The notes: generated from the letters alone by a model not told the origin. A stretch of 20,000 nt of DNA from an uncultured virus (IMG/VR IMGVR_UViG_3300025122_000011) (IMGVR_UViG_3300025122_000011), one strand, 5' to 3'. Positions 1 to 20,000 are shown, counted from the stretch's first letter. Program-made: numbers and translations.

Positions 1-813
1 AAGGCTTTGTTTTCATACTATCAAAATGGCAAAGATCCTCAAGCCAAGTATTTCTGCTTATTAGGAATGGGCCAAATTGGTGGTAATACCAATAGAAATA
101 AATTGTTGATAGAGCTTGGCCTAGGTCGTAAAACACTTGATCGTCCATGGGCTGCTCTTGGATTAGGTATCATGAGTTTCCATCGCTTCGAAAATGATAA
201 ACACGCTAGAGTTGATAACCTTGTAGGTGATTGTATTTTGAAGCAGTTAAAATCAGTTAAAGCTCCAGAAGCTAGAAGTGCATTCGCTATTGCTCTTGGC
301 TTGTGTCGTTATGAGAAGGGTTCCAGCGAACTAATGAATCTACTGGTAAAATATCGTCACCAGGACGAATTCGCTGGCTACCTCTGCATTAGTCTAGCAC
401 TGATGAACGAACAAAAAGCAAAGAGAGATATCCATGAAGTAGTTAGCGGGGCTGTACGCCGCCCGGAGCTTCTTCAACAGGCTGCAATTGCTCTTGGTAA
501 ACTTGGAGATAGGACTGTAACTCAAACTCTAATAGGTATGCTACAGGAGAAAGAAACCAATCTAGCCAAAATGAGTGCTATTGCTTCTGCGTTAGGATTT
601 ATTGGAGATCGTAGGACCATTGCTCCTCTGAAAAAGATATTGTTTAATGACTCCCTAACCCCTCTGAGCCGTGCTTTCGCAGCGGTTGCTCTAGGTGGGG
701 TTGCAGATAAAGAGAAGTTGCCCTGGAACTCTAAGATTGCTCGCAACATGAACTATAGGGGTGCAGTGGAAACTCTAACTCAGTCTGGATCTGGAATTTT
801 GGATATCCTGTAA
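1..813 (+). CDS. HEAT-repeat (PBS-lyase-like) protein, 5'-truncated by window edge
   Basis: Repeated helical units such as 'RSAFAIALGL', 'QQAAIALGKLGD', 'SAIASALGFIGDRRTIAPL', 'RAFAAVALGGVAD'; frame is open back to base 1. Confidence 0.8.
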   Translation, partial: KALFSYYQNGKDPQAKYFCLLGMGQIGGNTNRNKLLIELGLGRKTLDRPWAALGLGIMSFHRFENDKHARVDNLVGDCILKQLKSVKAPEARSAFAIALGLCRYEKGSSELMNLLVKYRHQDEFAGYLCISLALMNEQKAKRDIHEVVSGAVRRPELLQQAAIALGKLGDRTVTQTLIGMLQEKETNLAKMSAIASALGFIGDRRTIAPLKKILFNDSLTPLSRAFAAVALGGVADKEKLPWNSKIARNMNYRGAVETLTQSGSGILDIL

Positions 814-5500: not shown

Positions 5501-5528
5501 TTGACAGATCCGAAATATGCTATACAAT
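5501..5528 (+). promoter_or_regulatory. sigma70-type early promoter, leaderless
   Basis: TTGACA-16-TACAAT, ATG 6 nt downstream (5535). Confidence 0.85.
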
Positions 5529-7077: not shown

Positions 7078-7431
7078 ATGAACATCACGATCACACAAGG
7101 GAAAGGCTTTCATCTCAACTTTGACAATGGCTGGGTTCTCAGCATTCAGGTTGGCGAGTTCAATTACTGTGCCAATCGTGACATTCACTTCGAAGATCGC
7201 CTCGATAGCGGGAGAAGTGTTTCTTGCCCCGACGCGGAAATCGCGGTATGGCATAAGGAGGAGCACGGAATGTTACATCTCGGGGCGGATACGGTCGCGG
7301 GTTGGGTTCCTGGAAATACGGTTCTCAAAGTTGTAAATTATCTGAACCGCACTAAGTTGGGTAACGGTCGCAGGTTACAGGTTGGCCGTCAACTCGCCAA
7401 GATCCTACGCGCAAACCCTCCTGCTGAATAG
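7078..7431 (+). CDS. hypothetical phage protein
   Basis: 117 aa, 'GFHLNFDNGWVLSIQ...NYC...AEIAVW' pattern; start at promoter +1. Confidence 0.8.
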   Translation: MNITITQGKGFHLNFDNGWVLSIQVGEFNYCANRDIHFEDRLDSGRSVSCPDAEIAVWHKEEHGMLHLGADTVAGWVPGNTVLKVVNYLNRTKLGNGRRLQVGRQLAKILRANPPAE

Positions 7432-7494
7432 ACTTAGGCCCCTTCGGGGCCGGGGCGAAATTCCTAAGTCCCTACACACCAACACCTTATGAGC
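7431..7494 (+). repeat. module-boundary element copy 3
   Basis: Near-identical to copies 2, 4 and 5; overlaps TAG stop. Confidence 0.95.
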
Positions 7495-7537
7495 CCTAAG
7501 AAAAGTGAGAAAAGACGAAAAACCCAGAGGACTAGGC

Positions 7538-8205: not shown

Positions 8206-8511
8206 GTGATATTAAGGATCGTTACACTCGTCGTGGTGAGTATAAATAGTGTGTTCTAAGCCACGAGCGTCCGCATCTTACAAGTGGTAATTTGCGGGGA
8301 GACACCCATTAGCACTAATTGCTAGGTTGCAAACTAGCAGGGGACAAAGGATATTAGTGTTGTGTTTAATATTGTATTAGATCTATCGCCTGAGGCAAGA
8401 GATAGAAAGAAGCTACATTACTTGGGTCTGACTCAACACGTTCCTTCTAGAGGATGCGAGACAGAGCAGTAAGAGAGTTTCTTCGACAAGCCTCCCCATT
8501 AATATCGCTAG
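8202..8511 (+). ncRNA. candidate ~310-nt structured ncRNA, family unknown
   Basis: Largely ORF-free; closing helix GTGATATTAA(8206-15)/TTAATATCGC(8499-508) and several internal stems. Confidence 0.55.
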
Positions 8512-8552
8512 AAGTCGCAAGTTCCATCCCCGCTAAAGGCTTTGCTAGGCTA

Positions 8553-8616
8553 GGCTTAGGCCCCTTCGGGGCCGGGGCGAAATCCCTAAGTCCCTACACA
8601 CCAACACCTTATGAGC
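8553..8616 (+). repeat. module-boundary element copy 4
   Basis: GGCTTAGGCCCCTTCGGGGCCGGGGCGAAATCCCTAAGTCCCTACACACCAACACCTTATGAGC. Confidence 0.95.
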
Positions 8617-9924: not shown

Positions 9925-10235
9925 AGCCTGGGTATGCTAAACTGCCCACCATTTATTAGTGCTACGGCGGTAGGACAGCCGCTTGGCTTAGGATGTGTCG
10001 CAGCTACCCTAAGCTCGGGAATCGCCAACGCCCTTACGGGATGGACATGCGAGGACCGTGGCACCATTTATATTCAGGGGGGGAGTATGGTTGCCTTCGG
10101 AGCCTTTAGGCGAGTCCAGTAACCAATCCCCCCCTCTCATTTTTGAGGAGCCGAGTCAGCACCTTTGTAGCACCTTCGGGCGATGGCATAGTAAGATATG
10201 TGCGGGTAATTGGGATAAGGTGCGTCCCACTCCTC
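9925..10235 (+). ncRNA. cluster of four candidate small structured RNAs
   Basis: Units 9925-9951, 9959-10066, 10076-10135 and 10145-10235 are each closed by complementary ends and separated by AT-rich linkers; the first two end in ACCA. Confidence 0.55.
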
Positions 10236-10244
10236 TCTTCTATT

Positions 10245-10604
10245 ATGAAAACAATATTTCTAGATATCGACGGAACTATATTCTACCAATCCGACCGCTG
10301 CGACGAGGTCTATAGAACCCAGCCTGGGCTAATAAAGGGCTCAGCTAAAAAGTGTTGGCAGTGGCATCAAAAAGGCTATAATATAATCCTTACTACAGGA
10401 AGGCCTGAATCCTCTAGGAAATGGTGTGAACAAGCTCTAGCTCATCATAATATTGTGTATGATCAACTTATTATGAGTTTAAAGCCTTGGCCTCGTTATT
10501 TAATAAATAACGACCGATGGCGACCGTCGGATCAACGGGATGATCTCACCGCTTTTGCAAATACAATCCCCACAAATCATGGCATAAGTGATTTAGACAT
10601 CTAG
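10245..10604 (+). CDS. HAD-superfamily phosphatase (capless, PNKP-phosphatase-like)
   Basis: Motif I 'TIFLDIDGTI', motif II 'ILTTGRP', later 'K...INND'; start re-assigned to MKTIF. Confidence 0.85.
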   Translation: MKTIFLDIDGTIFYQSDRCDEVYRTQPGLIKGSAKKCWQWHQKGYNIILTTGRPESSRKWCEQALAHHNIVYDQLIMSLKPWPRYLINNDRWRPSDQRDDLTAFANTIPTNHGISDLDI

Positions 10605-10667
10605 GCTTAGGCCCCTTCGGGGCCGGGGCGAAATCCCTAAGTCCCTACACACCAACACCTTATGAGC
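10604..10667 (+). repeat. module-boundary element copy 5
   Basis: Identical to copy 4; overlaps TAG stop. Confidence 0.95.
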
Positions 10668-10700
10668 CATAAAAACTTCAAAAAAACATGAAACCGTGGC

Positions 10701-10728
10701 TTGACAGACCCTAAAATTAGTGTATGAT
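10701..10728 (+). promoter_or_regulatory. sigma70-type early promoter driving a tRNA-like RNA
   Basis: TTGACA-16-TATGAT; predicted +1 is 10735. Confidence 0.85.
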
Positions 10729-10734
10729 ATACAG

Positions 10735-10842
10735 GGCGCTGATATTGGCTTTGCTGTGCATTACGACGATTCCCGCGACCGTTTCGTAGCGGTGTTGAAG
10801 GGATGAGGCATAGTAGGGGGTTCAAATCCCCCCAGCGTCACC
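10735..10842 (+). ncRNA. tRNA/tmRNA-like RNA without anticodon arm
   Basis: Acceptor GGCGCTG/CAGCGTC + ACC; T-arm GGGGG-TTCAAAT-CCCCC; unpaired D-region; long helix TGCTGTGC/GCATAGTA. Confidence 0.75.
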
Positions 10843-10857
10843 TTTTCCCCAAAACTA

Positions 10858-11055
10858 ATGAAAAAAGCACGATACACCCTAAGCGTAGAGTATGACAACG
10901 GAGATTTGCTTCGTCAGCCCTACCTCACCCAGGCCAGAGCCTATCGGATCCTAAAAGCCTACGAGGACAAGGGTTGGATCTACCGCCCGATCGGCTGGAA
11001 GCCCCTTCGCATCACTCGATGGAAGCTCTCCACAGGTTGGCAAGAAACCGAATAA
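10858..11055 (+). CDS. small hypothetical protein
   Basis: 65-aa ORF filling the gap between the RNA and the next promoter. Confidence 0.65.
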   Translation: MKKARYTLSVEYDNGDLLRQPYLTQARAYRILKAYEDKGWIYRPIGWKPLRITRWKLSTGWQETE

Positions 11056-11061
11056 TAGGGC

Positions 11062-11089
11062 TTGACAGACCCCGAAATTACTGTATAAT
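11062..11089 (+). promoter_or_regulatory. sigma70-type early promoter, leaderless
   Basis: TTGACA-16-TATAAT, ATG 6 nt downstream (11096). Confidence 0.9.
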
Positions 11090-11095
11090 AGAAGC

Positions 11096-11389
11096 ATGAA
11101 TGAACGCCAAGAACACGGCCCTCTGGGGCACCAAGAACTCCGAGAAATCCAAGAACAACACATGAAGCTCGTCAACATGGCGAACGAGTTTGACTCTTTC
11201 TTTATCCACTACCTATTCGGTTGGATGGGTGTCGAGCGACACAAGGACATGGCAGAGTGCGCTCGCGCCTATCTTAATGACCAATACGGAGTACGCGACG
11301 TTCCTCGGCGGGACGAGGGTCGCGCCCTTCTCGCTAAATTCGACGAGGAAAACAACCTGTCGGAGAAGTCGGTGGACGTAATAAAGTGA
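11096..11389 (+). CDS. hypothetical protein
   Basis: 97 aa, starts at promoter +1. Confidence 0.75.
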   Translation: MNERQEHGPLGHQELREIQEQHMKLVNMANEFDSFFIHYLFGWMGVERHKDMAECARAYLNDQYGVRDVPRRDEGRALLAKFDEENNLSEKSVDVIK

Positions 11390-12012
11390 AAATCGCCGAA
11401 GCTAAAGCGATCACGGGGGGTCTCTCCAATCCCTCTAAGATGCCAGGGAAAGCCTACAATCTATCCGCTTTCGATTGTGATATGGGCTCTAAACTCGCTG
11501 TAAAAGCGGGAAGTGTATGCTCGGGATGCTATGCTCGAAAGGGTCGCTATCGTTTCCCTATGGTGCAAAAAGCTCTAAAGCGTAGACTCGCCTCCCTCGA
11601 TCACCCTTATTGGATCGAGGCGATGGTCACGCTAATTAGCAAACAATCCCCCAAACACTTTCGCTGGCATGATAGCGGGGATATTCAAAGCCTCGCGCAT
11701 CTAATGGCTATTACTGCGATTTGTGGATACACTCCTAATACGCAGCATTGGCTCCCTACTAAAGAATACGGGATAATCAAACAATATCTAAAGCATTGGG
11801 ATTTTCCCTCTAATTTGTGTGTTCGTGTTTCGGCTCCACTCATGGATCATCTCCCTAAGACGCTCTCGGGTGTCTTGGGGAGTATGGTTTTCTCGAAAGA
11901 CAAAAAGCCTGATACTTCGATCTGCCCCGCATCTAAACAAGGAAACCAGTGTGGCTCCTGTCGCAATTGCTGGGATTCTTCTATTCCTGTAATTGCTTAC
12001 CCGAAACACTAA
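11386..12012 (+). CDS. GP88-family phage protein (Cys-rich, radical-SAM-like)
   Basis: 'GGLSNPSKMPG', C..CSGCYA, 'FRWHDSGD', 'HWLPTKE', C-terminal 'CPA...CGSCRNCWD'; GTGA overlap. Confidence 0.8.
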   Translation: MKIAEAKAITGGLSNPSKMPGKAYNLSAFDCDMGSKLAVKAGSVCSGCYARKGRYRFPMVQKALKRRLASLDHPYWIEAMVTLISKQSPKHFRWHDSGDIQSLAHLMAITAICGYTPNTQHWLPTKEYGIIKQYLKHWDFPSNLCVRVSAPLMDHLPKTLSGVLGSMVFSKDKKPDTSICPASKQGNQCGSCRNCWDSSIPVIAYPKH

Positions 12013-17403: not shown

Positions 17404-17515
17404 TGGTGGAGGTGGCGACATCGAAATCGCGTCTTACTAAAAACCCTTTAGTTGCAAGCGCAGTTTATCGGGCTGGTCTTTCACCTGTTCTAGCAATCGA
17501 ATCCATTTCACCCCC
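17404..17515 (-). ncRNA. minimal tmRNA-like RNA (tRNA-like domain with vestigial interior)
   Basis: 5' GGGGGTGAAATGGATTCGA...GACGCGATTTCGATGTCGCCACCTCCACCA 3'; G3:U70, discriminator A, P2-like helix; only 112 nt. Confidence 0.85.
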
Positions 17516-17516
17516 G

Positions 17517-17897
17517 TTATATATCCTCCTTAAGATCTTCTTCCCATTCATTACTCTCCCTCCAAAGTATATCAGCTTCCAACTCTATCTCATCGAGTGC
17601 CTTACTCAAAAAAGACTCCACATCTTCTTCTCCCGTCCAATCAAAATATTGGGATTCACAATCTATATCGCTTCCCTCTACTATACTGCCTACTGCCAAG
17701 CCAGACTCAGTAAACTGAATCCACGCCCCACAAGCAGTTCCCTTGAACAGAGCCTTTTGGATCCTGTGGACAGGGCATCCTTTTTCTAGGCCAAAATAAA
17801 CTGCAACTCGATCCGTAAGGTCTTCGCCCATGGCTCGCTGTTCCTCACCGTGTTCGTAAGGATCCCACGCTTCAGACGGACAGGGTATATGGGTCAT
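17517..17897 (-). CDS. acidic hypothetical protein
   Basis: 126 aa, AAGGAG SD, first gene after promoter. Confidence 0.8.
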   Translation of the reverse strand: MTHIPCPSEAWDPYEHGEEQRAMGEDLTDRVAVYFGLEKGCPVHRIQKALFKGTACGAWIQFTESGLAVGSIVEGSDIDCESQYFDWTGEEDVESFLSKALDEIELEADILWRESNEWEEDLKEDI

Positions 17898-19437: not shown

Positions 19438-19511
19438 TGGTAGATCGTGTAGGAATCGAACCTACTTCAAACAGATTAGAAGTCCATTGGCCTAAATCCA
19501 TAGGACGATCC
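19438..19511 (-). tRNA. tRNA-Arg(TCT), atypical D-arm
   Basis: GGATCGT/ACGATCT+ACCA; anticodon arm ATGGA-CTTCTAA-TCTGT; T-arm GTAGG-TTCGATT-CCTAC. Confidence 0.8.
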
Positions 19512-19557: not shown

Positions 19558-19632
19558 TGGAAAGCAAGGAAGGTAACGCTCCTTCTTCTTCGGGACCAAA
19601 ACCCGACGTAATAGCTTCTATACTACTCGCTC
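19558..19632 (-). tRNA. tRNA-Gln(TTG), atypical T-loop
   Basis: GAGCGAG/CTTGCTT+TCCA; anticodon arm TCGGG-TTTTGGT-CCCGA; T-arm GAAGG-AGCGTTA-CCTTC. Confidence 0.75.
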
Positions 19633-19638
19633 AAAAGT

Positions 19639-20000
19639 TTAGCGTCGATGCTGGCGACGACGACTCTTATACATACGATTAGCCTTATGACAACGGGAAC
19701 GGGAACGAATGCTTCCGCGAACCCTATCCTTGATACTCCTGCGACCCTGGAATCTGCCGCTTTTATTAGTACGACCCCAACTCTTCCTACGGCTGCTAGA
19801 ACCCTTTCGGCTAGAACCCTTTCGGAGGCTGCTAAAGCTCTTTCGGCTAGAACCCTTTCGGCTAGAACCCTTTCGGCTAGAACCCTTTCGGAGGCTGCTA
19901 AAGCTCTTTCGGCTAGAACCCTTTCGGCTAGAACCCTTTCGGCTAGAACCCTTTCGGCTAGAACCCTTTCGGCTAGAACCCTTTCGGCTAAAGCTCTTTC
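19639..20000 (-). CDS. protamine-like Arg/Lys/Ser-rich repeat protein, C-terminal part (start outside window)
   Basis: Open frame ...KSFSRKGSSRKGSS...RRSIKDRVRGSIRSRSRCHKANRMYKSRRRQHRR* with TAA at 19641-19639. Confidence 0.7.
   Translation of the reverse strand, partial: KSFSRKGSSRKGSSRKGSSRKGSSRKGSSRKSFSSLRKGSSRKGSSRKGSSRKSFSSLRKGSSRKGSSSRRKSWGRTNKSGRFQGRRSIKDRVRGSIRSRSRCHKANRMYKSRRRQHRR
19795..20000. repeat. 15-bp coding tandem repeat
   Basis: GCTAGAACCCTTTCG and variant GCTAAAGCTCTTTCG, with occasional in-frame 6-bp insertions. Confidence 0.95.

Follow-up and report, generated by a model that had tools for sequence, protein, structure and literature searches.

The window analysed here is a 20,000-nt stretch of an uncultured virus, taken from the IMG/VR phage fragment IMGVR_UViG_3300025122_000011 (31,312 bases, approximately 28% complete by estimate). 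Its subject is a 108-nt element on the plus strand at positions 10735–10842, described in an initial annotation of the window as a second tmRNA-like tRNA mimic (tmRNA, transfer-messenger RNA) whose 5' end coincides with the start site of an early promoter. T4-type portal and large terminase genes lie upstream of the element on the fragment, and the source is a marine T4-like phage. Immediately upstream stands a HAD phosphatase gene (PHROG 415, E 3.2e-9). Its product is similar to the polynucleotide kinase phosphatase domain, with a Pfam HAD_PNKP match (E 2e-4) that stays under the cut-off. Downstream, 2 small open reading frames (ORFs) without family matches are followed by a GP88-family gene (11386–12012; Pfam E 5e-29). 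The first ORF behind the element, 10858–11055, had no match in Pfam or PHROG. Coordinates of all features are collected in Table 1.

The element is preceded by an early σ70-type promoter that agrees with the consensus at 11 of 12 positions. With up to 3 mismatches allowed, a 20-mer around its −35 box is present 6 times in the window (0.01 expected), and with a seventh copy at 5501 the window contains 7 near-identical early promoters. In all 6 sibling promoters a gap of exactly 6 nt separates the −10 box from an ATG lying in frame within a listed ORF of 61–161 aa, and the early mRNAs of this phage appear to be leaderless. Because the sibling genes look leaderless without exception, we placed the transcription start of the element promoter at the seventh base after its −10 box, the position that is the A of the ATG in the 6 siblings. 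For the element this gives G10735, with which the acceptor helix begins. The coincidence pointed out in the initial annotation is therefore real, since the same 6-nt gap leads to the same base, and its proposal that no RNase P processing is needed is well founded on the sibling arrangement. Altogether, promoter geometry strongly suggests that the 5' end of the RNA is made by transcription at G10735, without RNase P.

From this base onwards the RNA is predicted to fold into the upper half of a tRNA. The minimum free energy (MFE) structure calculated with RNAfold has −42.3 kcal/mol (z −2.35), and 5 of 200 shuffled sequences fold equally well. Pair probabilities are 0.99–1.0 for the acceptor, 0.86–0.87 for the T-arm, and 0.85–0.98 for the 8-bp helix that lies between them. 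Neither a D stem nor an anticodon arm is present in the predicted fold of 10735–10842, in which base pairing takes up nearly all of the 74 nt that separate acceptor and T-arm; read by eye, none of the 3 frames of this middle part ends in a hydrophobic tag of the tmRNA type. The anatomy given in the initial annotation was recovered at its coordinates: the acceptor, the perfect T-arm, the ACC end, the lack of a D-stem and of an anticodon arm, and an 8-bp helix enclosing nested TCCC/GGGA and ACCGTT/AGCGGT stems, which are the same in the MFE fold. The sole acceptor wobble is G2:U71, as had been claimed, and position 3:70 is a C:G pair instead of the G3:U70 of tmRNA. The pseudoknot that had been considered possible fared less well. 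The complementarity between TACGA (10762–10766) and TCGTA (10784–10788) exists, but this pairing overlaps the tetraloop and the closing pair of the inner hairpin and thus competes with the MFE fold, and nothing was found in its favour. As a chance control we used a descriptor requiring a T-arm, the T-loop motif, 7/7 acceptor pairs, and an NCC end. It matched 2 sites in the window, the element and a tRNA-Arg-like gene (19438–19511, minus strand); of 300 mononucleotide-shuffled sequences, 6 contained a match (on average 0.02 per sequence). We conclude that 10735–10842 is very probably a real structured tRNA-like RNA gene.

Table 1. Features of the element and of its surroundings. Positions refer to the window unless another record is named; R1 and R3 are covariance models explained in the text.
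Feature	Position	Strand	Details
Early σ70-type promoter	10701–10728	+	−35 TTGACA 10701–10706; 16-nt spacer; −10 TATGAT 10723–10728
Sibling promoters	5501, 5997, 6529, 7044, 7538, 11062	+	near-identical early promoters
Predicted transcription start (acceptor G1)	10735	+	seventh base after −10
Acceptor 5' strand	10735–10741	+	7/7 pairs with 10833–10839
D-loop substitute	10742–10751	+	10 nt, stem-less; A8 is its first base; contains UUGG; unpaired in MFE fold
P2-like helix region	10752–10815	+	8 bp, 10752–10759 / 10808–10815, enclosing two nested stems
Nested stems	10771–10774 / 10800–10803 and 10778–10783 / 10788–10793	+	in MFE and centroid folds
T-arm	10816–10832	+	five G:C pairs 10816–10820 / 10828–10832; 7-nt loop TTCAAAT
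Acceptor 3' strand and tail	10833–10842	+	strand 10833–10839; discriminator A10840; C10841–C10842; then T
HAD phosphatase gene	10143–10604		153 aa, upstream of element; PHROG 415
ORF	10858–11055	+	65 aa, downstream of element, without own promoter; from ORF list
Repeated hairpin module	10601–10667	+	ahead of promoter; possible insulator, terminator or processing site
Canonical-looking tag-less mini-tmRNA	17404–17515	−	112 nt; G3:U70; ACCA encoded; 9-bp P2-like helix; GAC linker; 6-nt T-loop
Insertion with TLD-only RNA of 72–75 nt	L028 926–1186; L026 1–282		R1 44.9 bits; R3 53.8 bits
Tandem modules beside GP88 gene	L034 1720–2160; L035 260–730; L030 2135–2245; L032 2210–2330; L006 66–200		one directly after mini-tmRNA

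Detectors of known RNA classes do not assign the element. ARAGORN, run with default settings and with introns allowed, found no tRNA or tmRNA in the window, and its mitochondrial mode gave nothing credible at the element. A "tRNA-Glu" at 9957–10842 with a 797-nt intron, called at a lowered threshold, reuses the 3' half of the element amid dozens of evident false calls and was rejected. Rfam at the gathering threshold gave no match at the element; within the window it matched only a tRNA at 19561–19632 (minus strand) and a Pistol ribozyme at 8226–8304 (plus strand). With E up to 10, the region 10600–10950 produced 7 weak matches, among which there was neither the tRNA model (RF00005) nor a Y-RNA family. 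As to the checks proposed in the initial annotation, ARAGORN and Rfam find no standard or intron-containing tRNA here, and no Y-RNA model is among the matches. The bacterial Y RNA (YrlA) module is a tRNA mimic that is also found in phages, and the ends of Y RNA form a Ro-binding stem, not an acceptor. The best of the weak matches was mascRNA-menRNA (RF01684; 25 bits, E 0.0056, cut-off 42.5), which covers the 3' 49 nt of the RNA (10791–10839). The likeness consists in a tRNA-like fold of acceptor and T-arm without a working anticodon arm, but mascRNA belongs to the nucleus of eukaryotes, the score stays below the cut-off, and the fold with the alternative 5' strand is 20.7 kcal/mol worse than the MFE fold. 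Indeed, the acceptor that the mascRNA alignment would form with 10791–10797 was rejected (−21.6 versus −42.3 kcal/mol, pair probability 0.0).

The general kind of RNA that the element resembles, a tag-less phage mini-tmRNA that has kept the tRNA-like domain (TLD), is already known from other phages. Mycobacteriophage DS6A is listed as "TLD only" by Hudson, Lau and Williams (2014; PMC4131195), and the entry is repeated by Nawrocki, Petrov and Williams (2025; PMC11915505). A search of IMG/VR with a pattern for short TLD-only RNAs returned 78 loci; 3 of them are ordinary tRNA-Ala genes, and the remaining 75 reduce to 52 distinct sequences. The length of these RNAs, 70–89 nt, is bounded by the search pattern, and G3:U70 and ACCA are invariant in 54/54 aligned members partly by construction of that pattern. 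With acceptor and T-arm fixed, 53 of the 54 sequences could be scored. The 5' link measures 8–14 nt in 43 of these 53 and contains GG in 47; a helix of at least 5 bp replaces the anticodon arm in 37; and the linker before the T-arm (GAC, AAC or UAC) has 3 nt in 38 and 0 nt in 4. The four-helix structure showed a covariation of 0.38 in a 32-sequence alignment, against 0.11 in shuffles, with 0/500 reaching the observed value and slid partners giving at most 0.108. In the helix that takes the place of the anticodon arm (P2), double changes occur at all 8 pairs.

Like DS6A and the other members of this family, the element is phage-encoded and lacks a tag frame. Its acceptor is joined to a stem-less link with GG, a single helix fills the position of the anticodon arm, and a T-arm follows; by analogy the RNA would be expected to interfere with the tmRNA-SmpB system of the host. 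The likeness to DS6A itself was judged from the published description. The element differs from the family in having G2:U71 with C3:G70, an ACC-T end, a linker of 0 nt, a length of 108 nt against the pattern-bounded 70–89 nt, and a 5' end abutted by a promoter, an arrangement present in only 1 of 60 distinct canonical mini-tmRNAs (L164 type). The full-length and two-piece (permuted) tmRNAs of the marine myophages Melnitz and pelagimyophages encode a tag peptide and pseudoknots and are detectable by ARAGORN or Rfam, whereas the element has no plausible tag frame and escapes both detectors. In marine myophages, two-piece tmRNA genes often lie directly after an early promoter, according to the relevant part of Buchholz et al. 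(2022; PMC9004378).

A canonical-looking RNA of this family is encoded in the window itself, at 17404–17515 on the minus strand. It begins 1 nt past the stop codon of ORF 17517–17897 (minus strand) and is presumably the "first" mimic that the initial annotation implied. We scored it with 2 family covariance models, one comprising acceptor and T-arm only (R1) and one including P2 (R3); an RNAalifold-derived model (R2) had recovered no P2 helix and was set aside. The RNA obtained 35.1 bits with R1 (E 3e-5) and 48.0 bits with R3 (E 7.5e-9), and it was missed both by ARAGORN and by Rfam at the gathering threshold.

To place the element among its relatives we used a metagenome scan with the GP88 protein, which yielded 80 loci. 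In 2 of them (L030 and L032, GP88 64% identical) a complete 83-nt RNA lies 300–450 nt upstream of the GP88 gene and contains G3:U70, A8, UGG, a 6-bp helix, an AAC linker, a T-arm, and ACCA. The L030 copy scores 47 bits, at the Rfam tmRNA cut-off (E 1e-16), in an alignment that skips the entire central part of the model. This RNA is a tag-less, TLD-only mini-tmRNA, and RNAs of the same 83-nt type, interrupted by the contig end, are present in L006 and L029. Judged by gene order, the element stands in the same place beside the GP88 gene as the mini-tmRNA of these relatives. The more distant GP88 relatives (L007–L023 and L037–L103) showed no TLD-like match near the GP88 gene. Relatives of the upstream HAD protein amounted to 3 weak loci and were not used.

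The element itself was found in close relatives. Five loci (L024–L028, 98–100% identical) carry it without a single difference, and contigs from 4 further marine runs (X5, X10, X13, and X17) cover it without a listed difference; one contig from the further runs differs at 8 positions and by indels 400–600 nt downstream of the element. No match was obtained by blastn of 10600–11100 against phage records, and searches of IMG/VR, with the own record excluded, for an exact 22-mer, the promoter pattern, and a pattern of 5' end plus T-loop gave 0 matches each. Short contigs from X5, X10, and X13 align only over 10807–10846, that is, the T-arm and the acceptor 3' strand, where they show 6 differences; past this stretch they diverge. 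They probably represent related RNA genes in other phages; 2 of the 3 listed downstream flanks resemble the TTGAC start of a promoter.

The sister strains L026 and L028 (98–99% identical) carry an insertion of approximately 260 nt at a G-run near window position 10076, and this insertion contains a third TLD-only RNA (Table 1). The cassette with the small RNA is polymorphic, being present or absent depending on the strain. Since small TLD cassettes are gained and lost between strains, the element could be a decaying duplicate of a TLD-only gene without a function of its own, which has lost G3:U70 and the terminal A and whose known copies, all nearly identical, come from a single phage lineage. 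We consider this very unlikely, because the T-loop and every pair of the acceptor (7) and of the T-arm (5) have been preserved, the 5' end has a full-strength promoter placed with single-base precision, and the changes relative to the L030-type RNA preserve pairing at 3:70, at 5:68, and at the second pair of the T-stem.

Our preferred interpretation is that the element is an early-gene TLD-like RNA acting as an uncharged competitor that damps trans-translation. It would thus work like a TLD-only mini-tmRNA while lacking the alanine identity of that family, and we assign this whole chain a probability of roughly 0.45. The link to tmRNA is drawn because the relatives have a bona fide mini-tmRNA upstream of GP88 and because a canonical-looking copy is present in the same window. 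The initial annotation had named SmpB among the possible targets of a decoy RNA, and by analogy this idea agrees with a published precedent: a similar TLD-only molecule inhibits tmRNA whether it is chargeable or not (the relevant parts of PMC4131195, citing Mao et al. 2009, and of PMC11915505). In the proposed sequence of events, the host RNA polymerase would start at G1, so that no RNase P cut is needed. The transcript would continue into the next ORF, and the tRNA 3'-end enzymes of the host would free the RNA behind ACC and complete its end. Once present, the uncharged RNA would draw SmpB away from the tmRNA of the host by competition, and perhaps also other readers of the tRNA elbow or of the 3' end. 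As a result, tagging of proteins from broken messages would be damped early in infection, as the analogy to the published TLD-only RNAs suggests.

The uncharged state is expected because G2:U71 and C3:G70 replace G3:U70, the major alanine determinant across the three domains of life (PMC6451123). By the established identity rules, an ordinary bacterial alanyl-tRNA synthetase would probably not charge this RNA. A chargeable RNA is nonetheless conceivable, one that is aminoacylated by a synthetase of the host or the phage, with alanine via G2:U71 or with another amino acid, and that serves in tag-less rescue at stalled ribosomes. Its acceptor helix is intact and carries a discriminator A followed by CC. 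Furthermore, G2:U71 together with G3-C70 is the main alanine identity in Drosophila mitochondria, as described by Giegé and Eriani (2023; PMC9976931, relevant part); this case requires G3-C70 and a dedicated, co-evolved mitochondrial enzyme, whereas position 3:70 of the element is C:G. Organellar tmRNAs without a coding sequence (mitochondrial ones and the ~65-bp plastid genes of Mallomonadaceae) likewise contain little beyond the TLD, and in some organelles they are thought to be functional, as reported in the relevant part of PMC11915505. They differ from the element in being organellar and in being thought to work in rescue with imported SmpB, and the comparison is one of descriptions only. 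A Pfam search for SmpB gave 0 matches on the 31-kb phage fragment (28% complete), which holds no synthetase gene either, and a rescue role could already be filled by the G3:U70 copy of the phage. Charging of the element is therefore quite unlikely.

Transcription beyond the element bears on a further explanation. The stretch from 10842 to the next promoter, at 11062, contains no terminator-like site; hence ORF 10858–11055 is probably on the same primary transcript, and the 3' end of the element would need processing. The element might accordingly be a tRNA-like leader acting in cis, in which a triphosphate-capped 5' module stabilises the mRNA of this ORF or directs tRNA 3'-end processing, the small RNA being a by-product. 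Several features would fit: the ORF lacks its own promoter, no Shine-Dalgarno-like purine run was seen before its ATG, among the genes served by the 7 promoters it alone is not leaderless, and the 3' half of the element weakly matches the end-processing mascRNA. However, the free-standing mini-tmRNA upstream of GP88 in the relatives precedes other RNA-like modules and not this ORF, and a T-loop consensus, a UUGG elbow partner, or a discriminator with CC would be superfluous in a stabilising hairpin. We regard the leader as rather unlikely; the 2 roles, leader and decoy, are mutually compatible.

The following observations weigh against an uncharged tmRNA decoy. The acceptor lacks G3:U70, the terminal A of the CCA end is not encoded (the base after ACC is T), and the linker of 0 nt before the T-arm has its like in only 4 of the 53 canonical mini-tmRNAs, 38 of which have 3 nt. 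The Rfam tmRNA model (RF00023) matches only the T-arm (10816–10832), with 12.3 bits against a cut-off of 47. With R1 the element scores 23.0 bits, within the 21–47 bits of ARAGORN-confirmed tRNAs; with R3 it reaches 34.1 bits, which is below all 8 held-out TLD-only RNAs (42.0–59.3) and within the range of 13 ARAGORN-confirmed tRNAs (14.5–39.5), 2 of which score higher. The missing terminator leaves room for a role in cis, as described above. Since the zero differences among close relatives span 576 nt in the contig (10639–11214), this conservation is not specific to the element, and as no diverged homologue of the element type was found, the inner helices have no covariation support. Finally, the phage already has a canonical-looking TLD gene, and a second decoy may be redundant.

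Compared with tmRNA (RF00023), the element thus falls below the Rfam cut-off and has neither G3:U70 nor an mRNA-like domain with a resume codon and a tag frame. Compared with TLD-only RNAs, it has A8 with a stem-less GG link of 10 nt and, in the predicted fold, a single P2-like helix of 8 bp, both of a length found among the 53 canonical mini-tmRNAs, and it is without G3:U70, an encoded ACCA, and a 3-nt linker. The covariance models R1 and R3 do not set it apart from ordinary tRNAs. We therefore describe the element as either a divergent relative or a look-alike of TLD-only tmRNA and refrain from assigning it to that family. Of the term "tmRNA-like tRNA mimic", the mimicry is supported by anatomy and context; membership in the tmRNA or TLD-only families is not established, given the absence of G3:U70 and the tRNA-like scores.

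We also searched with a pattern specific for G2:U71, which returned 6 loci, 4 of them overlapping ARAGORN-confirmed tRNAs. L186 forms 5/7 acceptor pairs and has no ARAGORN call. In L187, an unrelated IMG/VR phage, a 107-nt RNA at 401–507 (minus strand) combines G2:U71, 7/7 acceptor pairs, A8, UUGG, and ACC-T, and is not called as a tRNA by ARAGORN. There was no tblastx match between the L187 phage and the genome of the element, and R1 found nothing at E up to 1 in the L187 record. Going by its features, the L187 RNA may be a second TLD-like RNA without G3:U70. In the literature on phage tmRNA, TLDs, and SmpB decoys, we found no phage TLD without G3:U70 described, which is not proof of absence.

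The shared G2:U71, A8, UUGG, and ACC-T in an unrelated phage would also suit a decoy for a factor other than SmpB that recognises the acceptor/T-arm or the 3' end. Such a factor could be RNase Z or P, the CCA-adding enzyme, an enzyme of tRNA modification, or a defence toxin of the host directed against acceptor stems or 3' ends of tRNAs. In the element only the generic upper half of a tRNA is kept, and the marks of tmRNA (G3:U70 and a GAC-type linker) are missing; in addition, the upstream HAD gene resembles the PNKP phosphatase domain, which is part of an RNA-end repair activity. That link is mere adjacency, though, and the HAD gene is not conserved in L030 and L032. Moreover, no defence or partner protein is identifiable, and the tmRNA context of the relatives favours the trans-translation machinery. 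A target of this other kind is unlikely in our view.

Two further-reaching interpretations can be formulated, and we hold it doubtful that either applies. In one, the phage mounts a two-RNA attack on ribosome rescue: the element may be a non-chargeable primary transcript with a 5' triphosphate, independent of RNase P, that serves as an SmpB sponge from the first minutes, and its partner may be the chargeable G3:U70 TLD at 17404–17515, which needs processing. In the other, the element and the L187 RNA belong to a separate, undescribed class of G2:U71/ACC-U phage RNAs, which could be derived from the tmRNA TLD, with alanine identity given up and another partner acquired. Although tag-less mini-tmRNAs of phages have been recognised, they have hardly been investigated, and the only functional statement that we found in print is that a TLD-only RNA inhibits tmRNA irrespective of alanine charging. 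A single genome with an alanine-marked and an unmarked copy, the unmarked one wired to an early promoter, amounts to a natural test of charging-independent inhibition. If the uncharged copy binds SmpB, phages would select for pure titration of rescue, and the element would provide a naturally occurring, minimal inhibitor of trans-translation. Should it fail to bind, it would represent a further phage use of the tRNA upper half.

Further RNA-like features were observed around the element and in the related loci. The hairpin module ahead of the element promoter is 67–75 nt long and occurs in 3 copies on the plus strand: by BLAST, 8550–8616 is 100% identical to 10601–10667, and 7429–7503 is 94.7% identical. 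All 3 copies sit upstream of early promoters, and a similar module is present in L034 and L035. The terminator scan does not flag the module 10601–10667, as a T run is absent after the hairpin. Beside the GP88 gene, L034, L035, L030, L032, and L006 contain tandem modules, each with a closing long-range stem and then a T run (Table 1). No Rfam family was above threshold in L030 and L032–L036, and these modules are possibly undescribed small phage RNAs. On the strand opposite GP88, L008, L009, L010, and L017 share a conserved G-rich stretch of approximately 80 nt without a T-arm, located between 2 strong promoter-like sites.

Within the window, a 7-G run and a 7-C run surround approximately 45 nt at 10076–10140 (plus strand, noted by eye), followed by a T-rich tail directly before the HAD gene; this segment may be another small RNA or a terminator. 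The Pistol ribozyme match falls within the early region and scores 38.6 bits against a cut-off of 34.5. Two aberrant tRNA genes lie on the minus strand near the end of the window. The tRNA-Arg(UCU)-like gene matched by the descriptor has a weak D arm and is detected only by that descriptor and by the mitochondrial mode of ARAGORN, and the tRNA at 19561–19632 obtains 43 bits with Rfam and is called as Gln(UUG) by ARAGORN only at a lowered threshold. The window ends at 19910–20000, a stretch of 91 bases that the contig lacks, in a 15-nt tandem repeat of approximately 6 copies.

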